Below are positions 13,595-42,441 of a DNA stretch of 64,000 bases, one piece after another. This DNA comes from Escherichia coli (GTDB taxonomy: Bacteria; Pseudomonadota; Gammaproteobacteria; Enterobacterales; Enterobacteriaceae): NCBI RefSeq assembly GCF_003334785.1, contig NZ_QOWV01000001.1; one strand, given 5' to 3'. The position numbers and the translations under genes are program-made. The notes under the pieces were generated by a model. The model made no database searches and was not told the origin of the DNA. It saw only the letters and a list, made by a program, of their open reading frames with translations. Within the stretch, counting starts at the first letter, position 1. Each line of letters opens with the position of its first letter.

Positions 13595-14692
13595 GTGATT
13601 AAATTTCTCTCTGCATTAATTCTTCTACTGGTCACGACGGCGGCTCAGGCTGAGCGTATTCGCGATCTCACCAGTGTTCAGGGGGTAAGGCAAAACTCAC
13701 TGATTGGCTATGGTCTGGTGGTGGGGCTGGATGGCACCGGTGACCAGACAACCCAGACGCCGTTTACCACACAAACGCTTAATAACATGCTCTCACAGCT
13801 GGGAATTACCGTTCCGACGGGCACCAATATGCAGCTAAAAAACGTCGCTGCGGTAATGGTGACAGCGTCACTTCCTCCGTTTGGACGTCAGGGGCAAACC
13901 ATCGATGTGGTGGTTTCTTCCATGGGAAATGCCAAAAGCTTGCGTGGAGGTACGTTGTTGATGACACCGCTTAAGGGCGTTGACAGTCAGGTGTATGCGC
14001 TGGCGCAGGGCAATATTCTGGTTGGCGGCGCAGGAGCCTCCGCTGGCGGTAGCAGTGTTCAGGTTAACCAACTGAACGGTGGACGGATCACCAATGGTGC
14101 GGTTATTGAACGTGAATTGCCCAGCCAGTTTGGCGTCGGGAATACCCTTAATTTGCAACTTAACGACGAAGATTTCAGCATGGCGCAGCAAATCGCTGAC
14201 ACCATCAACCGCGTGCGTGGATATGGCAGCGCCACCGCGTTAGATGCGCGGACTATTCAGGTGCGCGTACCGAGTGGCAACAGTTCCCAGGTCCGCTTCC
14301 TTGCCGATATTCAGAATATGCAGGTTAATGTCACCCCGCAGGACGCTAAAGTAGTGATTAACTCGCGCACCGGTTCGGTGGTGATGAATCGCGAAGTGAC
14401 CCTCGACAGCTGCGCGGTAGCGCAGGGGAATCTCTCAGTAACAGTTAATCGTCAGGCCAATGTCAGCCAGCCAGATACACCGTTTGGTGGTGGACAGACT
14501 GTGGTTACTCCACAAACGCAGATCGATTTACGCCAGAGCGGCGGTTCGCTGCAAAGCGTACGTTCCAGCGCCAGCCTCAATAACGTGGTGCGCGCGCTCA
14601 ATGCGCTGGGCGCTACGCCGATGGATCTGATGTCCATACTGCAATCAATGCAAAGTGCGGGATGTCTGCGGGCAAAACTGGAAATCATCTGA
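13595..14692 (+). CDS. flgI: Flagellar P-ring protein FlgI (365 aa, GTG start)
   Basis: Tandem GTG GTG at 13592-13597; starting at the second gives (M)[24 protein letters not shown]..., 365 aa as recalled for FlgI. Confidence 0.9.
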
Positions 14693-15633
14693 TGATCAGC
14701 GACAGCAAACTACTGGCAAGTGCGGCCTGGGATGCGCAATCACTCAACGAACTAAAGGCGAAAGCGGGCGAAGATCCGGCGGCAAATATCCGTCCGGTGG
14801 CCCGTCAGGTGGAAGGGATGTTCGTGCAGATGATGTTGAAAAGCATGCGCGACGCTTTACCAAAAGATGGCCTGTTCAGCAGCGAGCACACTCGCCTGTA
14901 TACCAGTATGTATGACCAGCAGATTGCCCAACAGATGACGGCGGGCAAAGGTCTGGGGCTTGCAGAGATGATGGTTAAACAGATGACGCCAGAACAACCA
15001 TTGCCAGAGGAGTCCACGCCAGCAGCACCGATGAAATTCCCGCTCGAAACTGTGGTGCGTTATCAAAATCAGGCGCTTTCGCAGCTGGTGCAAAAGGCCG
15101 TGCCACGTAACTACGATGATTCGCTGCCGGGTGACAGTAAAGCATTCCTCGCGCAACTCTCGCTGCCCGCCCAACTGGCAAGCCAGCAAAGCGGTGTGCC
15201 ACATCATTTGATCCTCGCTCAGGCGGCACTGGAATCTGGTTGGGGGCAACGGCAAATCCGCCGCGAAAACGGCGAGCCGAGCTATAACCTGTTTGGTGTC
15301 AAAGCCTCTGGCAACTGGAAAGGGCCAGTTACTGAAATCACCACGACTGAATATGAAAACGGCGAAGCGAAGAAAGTAAAAGCGAAGTTTCGCGTCTACA
15401 GCTCGTATCTGGAAGCCTTGTCGGATTACGTTGGGCTGTTAACGCGTAACCCGCGCTACGCCGCCGTGACGACCGCCGCGAGTGCGGAACAGGGGGCGCA
15501 GGCCCTACAGGACGCGGGCTATGCCACCGATCCTCACTATGCCCGCAAACTCACCAACATGATTCAGCAGATGAAATCGATAAGCGACAAGGTGAGCAAA
15601 ACCTACAGTATGAACATTGATAATCTGTTCTGA
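14692..15633 (+). CDS. flgJ: Flagellar rod assembly protein / muramidase FlgJ (313 aa)
   Basis: Start at [22 protein letters not shown] gives 313 aa; the ATG overlaps the flgI stop (TGATG); matches recalled FlgJ. Confidence 0.93.
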   Translation: MISDSKLLASAAWDAQSLNELKAKAGEDPAANIRPVARQVEGMFVQMMLKSMRDALPKDGLFSSEHTRLYTSMYDQQIAQQMTAGKGLGLAEMMVKQMTPEQPLPEESTPAAPMKFPLETVVRYQNQALSQLVQKAVPRNYDDSLPGDSKAFLAQLSLPAQLASQQSGVPHHLILAQAALESGWGQRQIRRENGEPSYNLFGVKASGNWKGPVTEITTTEYENGEAKKVKAKFRVYSSYLEALSDYVGLLTRNPRYAAVTTAASAEQGAQALQDAGYATDPHYARKLTNMIQQMKSISDKVSKTYSMNIDNLF

Positions 15634-15638
15634 ATAAC

Positions 15639-15665
15639 TCAAGTCCGGCGGGTCGCTGCCGATAA
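15639..15665 (+). promoter_or_regulatory. Candidate sigma-28 class 3 promoter for flgKL
   Basis: TCAAGTCC-N11-GCCGATAA: perfect sigma-28 -10 element, 5/8 match in the -35, correct 11-bp spacing; about 34 nt upstream of the flgK ATG. Confidence 0.55.
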
Positions 15666-15698
15666 TACTCTGTAATTGAAGGCTTATAAGGAACCTCC

Positions 15699-17342
15699 AT
15701 GTCCAGCTTGATTAATAACGCCATGAGCGGACTGAACGCGGCCCAGGCGGCGTTAAATACGGCAAGTAATAATATCTCCAGCTATAACGTTGCCGGATAT
15801 ACCCGCCAAACCACTATTATGGCGCAGGCCAATAGCACGTTGGGCGCTGGCGGCTGGGTTGGCAATGGTGTCTACGTTTCTGGTGTGCAGCGTGAGTATG
15901 ATGCGTTTATTACCAACCAGTTACGTGCGGCGCAGACGCAAAGTAGCGGTCTGACTGCCCGCTATGAGCAGATGTCGAAAATCGACAATATGCTCTCCAC
16001 CAGTACCTCTTCGCTGGCAACACAGATGCAGGATTTCTTCACCAGCCTGCAAACGCTGGTGAGTAACGCGGAAGACCCGGCAGCGCGCCAGGCGCTGATT
16101 GGGAAATCAGAAGGATTGGTGAATCAGTTTAAAACCACCGATCAATATCTGCGCGACCAGGACAAACAGGTCAATATCGCGATAGGTGCCAGCGTTGATC
16201 AGATCAACAACTACGCTAAACAAATTGCCAGCCTGAACGATCAAATCTCGCGCCTGACAGGCGTGGGGGCAGGGGCGTCACCTAACAATCTGCTGGATCA
16301 ACGCGATCAACTGGTGAGCGAATTAAACCAGATTGTTGGTGTAGAAGTCAGCGTTCAGGATGGCGGCACTTATAACATCACGATGGCCAATGGTTACTCA
16401 CTGGTTCAGGGAAGTACGGCGCGGCAACTGGCGGCAGTTCCTTCCAGCGCTGACCCTTCTCGTACGACTGTCGCTTATGTTGATGGGACGGCAGGCAATA
16501 TTGAGATCCCGGAGAAATTACTGAATACCGGGTCGCTGGGCGGCATTCTGACATTCCGTTCTCAGGATCTGGACCAGACGCGTAATACGCTTGGACAACT
16601 GGCGCTGGCATTTGCCGAGGCTTTCAACACCCAACACAAAGCCGGATTTGATGCTAACGGCGATGCCGGTGAAGATTTCTTTGCTATCGGTAAGCCCGCG
16701 GTTCTGCAAAACACGAAAAACAAAGGTGACGTTGCGATCGGTGCCACGGTAACTGATGCCTCCGCGGTACTGGCGACAGATTACAAAATCTCGTTCGATA
16801 ATAATCAGTGGCAGGTCACCCGCCTTGCCAGCAATACCACTTTTACGGTGACGCCGGATGCCAACGGTAAAGTGGCATTTGATGGTCTGGAGTTGACGTT
16901 TACAGGAACGCCTGCCGTTAACGACAGCTTCACGCTGAAACCAGTAAGTGACGCCATCGTCAACATGGATGTATTAATCACCGACGAAGCGAAAATAGCG
17001 ATGGCGAGCGAAGAAGATGCGGGTGATAGCGATAACCGCAACGGTCAGGCCCTGCTGGATCTGCAAAGCAACAGTAAAACGGTGGGCGGTGCGAAATCCT
17101 TTAACGACGCTTATGCCTCGTTAGTGAGTGATATCGGTAATAAAACCGCGACGTTGAAAACCAGTAGCGCCACGCAAGGTAATGTGGTGACGCAGCTTTC
17201 CAATCAGCAGCAGTCGATTTCCGGTGTCAATCTCGATGAGGAGTACGGAAATCTGCAACGTTTTCAGCAGTATTACCTGGCGAATGCGCAGGTTCTGCAG
17301 ACGGCAAACGCGATTTTTGATGCGCTGATTAACATTCGCTAA
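15699..17342 (+). CDS. flgK: Flagellar hook-associated protein 1, FlgK (547 aa)
   Basis: MSSLINNAMSGLNAAQAALNTASNNISSYNVAGYTRQTTI...; matches recalled FlgK. Confidence 0.95.
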   Translation: MSSLINNAMSGLNAAQAALNTASNNISSYNVAGYTRQTTIMAQANSTLGAGGWVGNGVYVSGVQREYDAFITNQLRAAQTQSSGLTARYEQMSKIDNMLSTSTSSLATQMQDFFTSLQTLVSNAEDPAARQALIGKSEGLVNQFKTTDQYLRDQDKQVNIAIGASVDQINNYAKQIASLNDQISRLTGVGAGASPNNLLDQRDQLVSELNQIVGVEVSVQDGGTYNITMANGYSLVQGSTARQLAAVPSSADPSRTTVAYVDGTAGNIEIPEKLLNTGSLGGILTFRSQDLDQTRNTLGQLALAFAEAFNTQHKAGFDANGDAGEDFFAIGKPAVLQNTKNKGDVAIGATVTDASAVLATDYKISFDNNQWQVTRLASNTTFTVTPDANGKVAFDGLELTFTGTPAVNDSFTLKPVSDAIVNMDVLITDEAKIAMASEEDAGDSDNRNGQALLDLQSNSKTVGGAKSFNDAYASLVSDIGNKTATLKTSSATQGNVVTQLSNQQQSISGVNLDEEYGNLQRFQQYYLANAQVLQTANAIFDALINIR

Positions 17343-17353
17343 GGGGAGATAAG

Positions 17354-18307
17354 ATGCGTTTCAGTACACAGATGATGTACCAGCAAAACATGCGTGGTAT
17401 CACCAATTCTCAGGCAGAATGGATGAAGTACGGCGAACAGATGTCGACGGGTAAGCGAGTCGTTAACCCTTCTGACGATCCCATTGCTGCATCACAAGCC
17501 GTAGTTCTCTCCCAGGCACAGGCGCAAAACAGCCAGTACACGCTGGCGCGTACTTTCGCCACTCAAAAAGTGTCACTGGAAGAGAGTGTACTTAGCCAGG
17601 TCACCACTGCTATCCAGAATGCTCAGGAAAAAATTGTCTACGCCAGCAATGGCACCTTGAGTGACGATGACCGGGCCTCGCTGGCTACGGATATTCAGGG
17701 GCTTCGTGACCAGTTGCTGAATCTGGCAAACACCACTGACGGTAACGGGCGCTACATTTTTGCCGGTTATAAAACAGAGACTGCGCCGTTTAGCGAAGAG
17801 AAAGGGAAATACGTCGGTGGAGCAGAAAGTATTAAACAACAGGTCGATGCTTCGCGTTCGATGGTGATAGGGCACACGGGTGACAAAATTTTCGACAGTA
17901 TTACCAGCAACGCGGTAGCGGAACCAGACGGTAGCGCTTCTGAAACCAATCTTTTTGCCATGCTGGATAGTGCCATCGCAGCCCTGAAAACGCCGGTCGC
18001 GGATAGCGAAGCGGATAAAGAAACCGCCGCTGCGGCGTTAGATAAAACCAACCGCGGACTGAAAAACTCGCTGAACAATGTGCTGACTGTTCGCGCGGAA
18101 TTAGGCACGCAGCTGAACGAACTGGAGTCGCTGGATTCATTAGGTAGCGATCGCGCTTTAGGGCAAACGCAGCAGATGAGCGATCTGGTTGATGTGGACT
18201 GGAATGCAACTATTTCATCTTACATCATGCAGCAAACGGCATTGCAGGCATCGTATAAAGCATTTACCGATATGCAGGGATTGTCGCTCTTCCAGCTCAG
18301 CAAATAA
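17354..18307 (+). CDS. flgL: Flagellar hook-associated protein 3, FlgL (317 aa)
   Basis: MRFSTQMMYQQNMRGITNSQAEWMKYGEQMSTGKRVVNPSDDP...; matches recalled FlgL. Confidence 0.95.
   Translation: MRFSTQMMYQQNMRGITNSQAEWMKYGEQMSTGKRVVNPSDDPIAASQAVVLSQAQAQNSQYTLARTFATQKVSLEESVLSQVTTAIQNAQEKIVYASNGTLSDDDRASLATDIQGLRDQLLNLANTTDGNGRYIFAGYKTETAPFSEEKGKYVGGAESIKQQVDASRSMVIGHTGDKIFDSITSNAVAEPDGSASETNLFAMLDSAIAALKTPVADSEADKETAAAALDKTNRGLKNSLNNVLTVRAELGTQLNELESLDSLGSDRALGQTQQMSDLVDVDWNATISSYIMQQTALQASYKAFTDMQGLSLFQLSK

Positions 18308-40600: not shown

Positions 40601-42441
<1,841 letters not shown>

Follow-up and report, generated by a model that had tools for sequence, protein, structure and literature searches.

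Gene context and promoter elements

In the window, which denotes the whole 64,000-nt stretch of Escherichia coli DNA analyzed here, the RefSeq annotation places flgN, flgM, and flgA of the flg cluster on the minus strand; flgBCDEFGHIJKL occupy the plus strand, with rne as the next gene (Table 1). The stop codon of flgJ (TGA, 15631-15633) and the start codon of flgK (ATG, 15699) are separated by a gap of 65 bp (15634-15698). A 701-bp stretch around this gap is 100% identical to the sequence of strain MG1655, and all of the 5,426 complete genomes of the species contain it. Five of these matches fall in plasmid-labelled records, which are probably assembly or labelling oddities.

The gap contains two sequence elements whose arrangement is that of a sigma-28 (FliA)-dependent class 3 promoter: a -10 element that agrees with the consensus GCCGATAA at all eight positions, a -35 element, TCAAGTCC, that resembles the consensus TAAAGTTT at five of eight positions, a spacing of 11 nt between them, and a plus-strand orientation upstream of flgK, a late flagellar gene, whose start codon is separated by 33 nt from the end of the -10 box. 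The initial annotation had described a perfect -10 element at 15658-15665, a correctly spaced, weaker -35 element with five of eight matches and a gap length of 65 bp, and a reading of the DNA confirmed each of these details together with the coordinates.

Table 1. Coordinates of the flgKL promoter, the neighboring transcription units and other sigma-28-like sites in the window.
Feature	Position	Strand	Basis and remarks
flgMN class 3 promoter TAAAGATTACCCGTCCCTTGCCGATAAA	7492-7519	-	Inside flgA; 25.4 bits, best sigma-28 match in the window; identical in published ChIP-seq table
flgBCDEFGHIJ class 2 operon, transcript reads through into flgKL	8339-15633	+	Annotation; terminator scan; published RT-PCR
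Sigma-28-like match	9573-9600	+	In flgD; 17.1-17.7 bits (range over three matches); not in ChIP list
-35 element TCAAGTCC of the FliA (sigma-28) flgKL promoter	15639-15646	+	Sequence; 5/8 vs TAAAGTTT; published ChIP-seq motif
11-nt spacer GGCGGGTCGCT	15647-15657	+	Sequence reading
-10 element GCCGATAA, perfect consensus (8/8)	15658-15665	+	Sequence reading
Predicted 5' untranslated leader of the class 3 flgKL transcript	15672-15698	+	Usual sigma-28 -10-to-start distance and sequence
flgK, hook-filament junction protein 1, first gene of the class 3 unit	15699-17342	+	ORF and RefSeq annotation
flgL, hook-filament junction protein 3, second gene of the class 3 unit	17354-18307	+	ORF and RefSeq annotation
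Sigma-28-like match	31209-31236	-	Antisense in pabC; 17.1-17.7 bits (range over three matches); not in ChIP list
Sigma-28-like match	41348-41375	+	In thiK; 17.1-17.7 bits (range over three matches); not in ChIP list
Sigma-28-like match TAAAAATAACGCCCATAATGCCGATAAA	58656-58683	+	Antisense inside ymfA; 22.35 bits; absent from 52 published FliA ChIP-seq sites

If the start site lies as far from the -10 element as is usual for sigma-28, transcription would begin at about 15672-15675. With the start so placed, the leader of the class 3 flgKL transcript would comprise approximately 25 nt; it contains a Shine-Dalgarno-like AAGGA at 15688-15692, 6 nt before the flgK start codon. Primer-extension work is reportedly due to Kutsukake and Ide in 1995 and to Ide and colleagues in 1999. 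A search for a mapped flgKL start in the Cappable-seq supplements and in the transcription start site supplements of Kim (2012) retrieved neither flgK nor the expected coordinates.

FliA binding and FliA-dependent expression

The 28-mer TCAAGTCCGGCGGGTCGCTGCCGATAAT, which is identical to positions 15639-15666 of the window, is the FliA ChIP-seq motif listed for flgKL (Fitzgerald et al., 2014; PMC4183435, Table 2). In that study, occupancy at flgKL was nearly the same as at flgMN (47 versus 48 fold above threshold, FAT). Genomic SELEX with purified RpoF holoenzyme yielded a peak of 27.2 in the spacer between flgJ and flgK as compared to 15.0 for flgM, and the SELEX authors noted earlier in vitro transcription evidence for flgKL as well as its place among the RpoF targets of RegulonDB (PMC5493296). 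In addition, the flgKL fragment has been counted among eight well-characterized sigma-28 promoters and was not bound by CRP (PMC2859248). In the PURE system of reconstituted transcription-translation, sigma-28 is a strong activator of the flgK promoter. Weak activation of the flgK fragment by FlhDC was also observed in this system, and our scan of positions 15400-15800 yielded no sequence basis for it.

In vivo, microarray analyses of a fliA deletion revealed a 5.5-fold decrease of flgK and a 4.9-fold decrease of flgL transcripts, while fliA overexpression increased them 2.2-fold and 1.8-fold, respectively (PMC1935009). A second study reported a flgK expression value of 318 for the wild type, as against 138 for the fliA deletion, a change of about 2.3-fold that was not flagged as significant, and found that fliA overexpression in an flhD deletion returned flgK to at least the wild-type level (PMC4183435). 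The sigma-28 class 3 promoter that the initial annotation proposed for flgKL is thus supported by occupancy of the 28-mer, by holoenzyme binding and activation in vitro, and by fliA dependence in vivo. Its description as a mere candidate was too cautious, as the flgKL promoter is counted among the six canonical promoters of class 3 operons (PMC4183435). Taken together, the site is almost certainly the FliA-dependent class 3 promoter of the E. coli K-12 flgKL operon, operating alongside read-through from the class 2 operon.

Read-through from the flgB operon

RT-PCR identified a transcript that spans the flgJ-flgK boundary, which places flgKL also within the FlhDC-dependent flgB operon (PMC4183435) and bears out the read-through that the initial annotation had suggested. 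Neither an intrinsic terminator nor a sigma-70 promoter was detected in a scan of positions 15400-15800, which extend from the end of flgJ across the gap into the start of flgK. This agrees with the read-through published for the class 2 flgB promoter.

The existence of two sources of flgKL mRNA allows the interpretation that the promoter is real and yet physiologically marginal, with flgKL being expressed essentially by class 2 read-through and the sigma-28 site playing a minor role apart from particular situations like swarming or filament repair. This interpretation is favored by the observation that dual-regulated genes changed less than 4-fold upon fliA deletion as compared to more than 100-fold upon flhDC deletion; under the conditions used by the authors, FliA-dependent transcription contributed very little and most transcription of dual-regulated genes, flgKL among them, originated from FlhDC-dependent promoters (PMC4183435). 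The lack of a terminator-like site between 15400 and 15800 is also in agreement with it. However, a promoter of marginal importance is difficult to reconcile with the 5.5-fold decrease of flgK in the fliA deletion (PMC1935009), with the restoration of flgK in an flhD deletion by fliA overexpression alone (PMC4183435), and with the strict retention of both boxes and their spacing in the 81 sequences described below. A merely marginal role is consequently regarded as unlikely, though it deserves serious weight. The promoter itself is real, and its quantitative share of flgKL transcription varies with conditions.

Conservation of the promoter

A FlgK scan with one genome per species provided 80 loci. 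They represent over 20 named genera, among them Escherichia, Citrobacter, Salmonella, Enterobacter, Kosakonia, Kluyvera, Buttiauxella, and Cedecea. Together with the window, these 80 other Enterobacteriaceae species formed a comparison set of 81 sequences, 76 of which are distinct. In all 81, the -35 core TCAAGT, the 11-nt spacing between the two 8-mers and the -10 core CGATA are invariant upstream of flgK, and the majority of columns in the 11-nt spacer are nearly devoid of information. Fixed boxes around a variable spacer are the pattern expected of a two-box promoter. The complete -10 element was GCCGATAA in 58 of the 81 sequences and a single-base variant of it in the remainder. The -35 element occurred as TCAAGTCC (27 sequences), TCAAGTTT (19), TCAAGTTC (18), TCAAGTCT (12), as well as in three forms that were rare. 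A 91-bp query across the gap matched 4,925 of 5,425 E. coli genomes with at least 99% identity. The lowest-ranked E. coli match in a spread of the listed matches was 95.6% identical and had both boxes intact; of its four substitutions, two are in the spacer and the others just upstream of the -35 element and just after the -10 element. As judged from these alignments, the conservation of boxes and spacing in the 81 sequences argues for selection on promoter function.

Conservation of the gap could alternatively reflect, in the main, a structural or processing element in the RNA of the long flgB-L transcript, namely a hairpin that encloses the -10 element, instead of a promoter. In Enterobacter, Leclercia, and their relatives, the promoter spacer is indeed complementary to the bases just after the -10 element, the hairpins predicted there, which carry the -10 element in the loop, reach -20 to -26 kcal/mol (for example at loci L037, L046, and L026), and the proposed hairpin register pairs 65.5% of cells, compared to 32-44% in slid registers. 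Nevertheless, this percentage of pairing was reached by 32 of 500 shuffles. Covariation in the fixed register, calculated for the 48 sequences of the long-leader clade, amounted to 0.190 versus 0.177 for shuffled alignments and was reached by 67 of 500 shuffles, and RNAalifold returned no consensus structure for this clade. No long hairpin is predicted for E. coli, Citrobacter, and Salmonella. Moreover, the invariant columns are exactly the sigma-28 boxes while the potential stem columns are the variable ones, and direct binding of FliA has been published (PMC4183435, PMC5493296). A hairpin enclosing the -10 element was therefore rejected as a general feature, its covariation not exceeding that of shuffles, with no RNAalifold consensus and no counterpart in E. 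coli, and it is highly improbable that such a structure is the main cause of the conservation. The predicted hairpin of the Enterobacter clade may be specific to that lineage, and it leaves the conservation of the boxes unexplained.

The flgK promoter of Enterobacter, Leclercia, Lelliottia, and related genera lies inside an inverted repeat, in which the tail of the -35 element and the spacer pair with the bases after the -10 element. The loci concerned (L026, L028, L037-L049, L052, L054, L063, and L064; approximately 95 nt upstream of flgK to its ATG) have a leader about 10 nt longer than that of E. coli.

Motif statistics

The composite consensus TAAAGTTT-N11-GCCGATAA was found four times in the window when up to three mismatches were allowed, as compared to 0.53 expected occurrences; one of 100 shuffled sequences contained four. 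The known flgMN promoter is one of the other three matches. A weight matrix was built from 23 published FliA ChIP sites with a FAT value above 4, the two sites within the window being excluded. With this matrix, the flgKL site scored 16.75 bits and ranked sixth among the 127,946 positions of the window; in Markov-1 simulations, 0.1 positions per 64 kb are expected at this score. The value lies within the range of ChIP-validated promoters such as fliA (16.7 bits), modABC (16.8 bits), and fliL (15.7 bits). It is unevenly distributed over the motif, with 14.3 bits contributed by the -10 half and 2.5 bits by the -35 half, in line with the weaker -35 element of the initial annotation.

The flgKL site is equalled or surpassed in score by four unvalidated sites in the window, none of which is part of the published ChIP-seq list (Table 1), so that a motif score alone over-predicts and is no proof of function. 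The highest-scoring of these, within ymfA, may resemble a promoter without being occupied, or may be a weak promoter in the antisense direction. The function of the flgKL site is established by its location, its conservation, and the published experiments, not by its score. A chance consensus match without function, a notion to which these equal or better scores at sites outside the ChIP-seq list and the ten occurrences of GCCGATAA in the window might lend some color, is refuted by published binding and expression data and has a vanishingly small probability, the site being correctly oriented at 33 nt from the flgK start codon, keeping an invariant footprint across 81 sequences, and being supported as a promoter by three independent published experimental lines.

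The octamer GCCGATAA is itself enriched in the window, as its ten copies compare to 2.35 expected and none of 100 shuffles reached ten. Two of the copies belong to known FliA promoters and most of the others are intragenic; codon usage may contribute to their number. One perfect copy is located at 8275-8282 (plus strand) in the divergent regulatory region between flgA and flgB, 56 nt upstream of the flgB start codon. It is preceded by a poor -35 sequence, CCCATTTT, scores 13.9 bits and is absent from the FliA ChIP list. This copy seems to overlap an inverted arrangement of AAATAGCG and CGTTTATT, which we take to resemble an FlhDC box.

Another intergenic region, the flgF-flgG gap (11879-12049), is unusually long for the flgB operon at 171 bp. 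By eye, it harbors at approximately 11971-12007 the palindrome GTAGGCCGGATAAGGCGTTTACGCCGCATCCGGCAAG, which is presumably REP-like. A peak of RpoF holoenzyme binding in SELEX has also been listed for this gap (PMC5493296). Scanning the gap for the sigma-28 motif gave no forward-strand match, the best score of 4.9 bits being found on the opposite strand.

The non-consensus -35 element

At the second position of the -35 element, 19 of the 23 training sites carry an A and two carry a C. In the flgKL promoter, this position is a C in all 81 sequences. Because of this fixation, and because published binding matches that of the near-consensus flgM promoter, the -35 element is a conserved variant rather than a product of decay. 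The term "degenerate," under which it had been introduced, therefore holds insofar as the element departs from the consensus and is weak by the matrix, and fails insofar as it implies decay, TCAAGT being invariant. Since published binding at this seemingly weak site equals that at flgM, weight-matrix scores may misjudge the contribution of the -35 element. It is possible, if still rather doubtful, that the non-consensus -35 element represents a selected setting, which could concern the strength of the flgKL promoter, its timing or its threshold for the FliA level within class 3, or an overlapping function; this suggestion derives from the alignment.

Discussion

The flgKL class 3 promoter has been described before and has been characterized by experiment in this same strain. 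The 28-mer of the window is identical to that of the E. coli K-12 promoter, with no difference between them, so that the site is a rediscovery. In the resulting model, RNA polymerase carrying FliA recognizes TCAAGTCC-N11-GCCGATAA in the flgJ-flgK gap and would initiate a few bases downstream of the -10 element to produce a flgKL mRNA with a short leader. FliA is kept inactive by FlgM until the hook-basal body is complete and FlgM has been exported, and the flgKL promoter would consequently fire late. The sigma-28 promoter would thereby provide a late supply of FlgK and FlgL that is independent of FlhDC. flgKL is also transcribed, at what would be an earlier stage, as the tail of the FlhDC-dependent flgB operon, as nothing appears to terminate transcription after flgJ. 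The role in timing would, in E. coli, follow from the established flagellar hierarchy (summarized in PMC4183435).

Several related promoters exhibit a comparable organization. In Salmonella enterica (locus L025), the flgK class 3 promoter occupies the same position in the gap, displays the same TCAAGTCC-N11-GCCGATAA architecture, and is likewise combined with class 2 transcription, whereas the spacer and leader sequences differ from those of E. coli. This Salmonella promoter is said to have been described by Kutsukake and Ide in 1995 and by Wozniak and colleagues in 2010. A phenotype in swarming and filament repair has been demonstrated in Salmonella, while no such report was found for E. coli. 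The flgMN promoter is also a FliA promoter embedded in a class 2 unit, which creates overlapping operons, and it shares the perfect GCCGATAA and the 11-nt spacer with flgKL. It differs in its intragenic position, in its near-consensus -35 element TAAAGATT, and in its score of 25.4 bits as compared to 16.75 bits; its occupancy is nevertheless about equal to that of flgKL, and its SELEX signal is lower. The fliDST and fliLMNOPQR operons also combine FlhDC/sigma-70 and FliA input, and the FliA site of fliL likewise starts with TCAAG. In these two cases, however, complex promoters are located at the head of the operon, whereas the flgKL FliA promoter lies between cistrons of a longer transcript.

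As the flgKL class 3 promoter belongs to textbook flagellar regulation, its recovery has little value as a discovery and instead serves as a positive control, in which a real promoter was recognized from sequence alone. The footprint across species adds a small point, namely the strict conservation of a non-consensus TCAAGT -35 element, which could serve the study of how sigma-28 promoter strength is tuned among the late flagellar genes.
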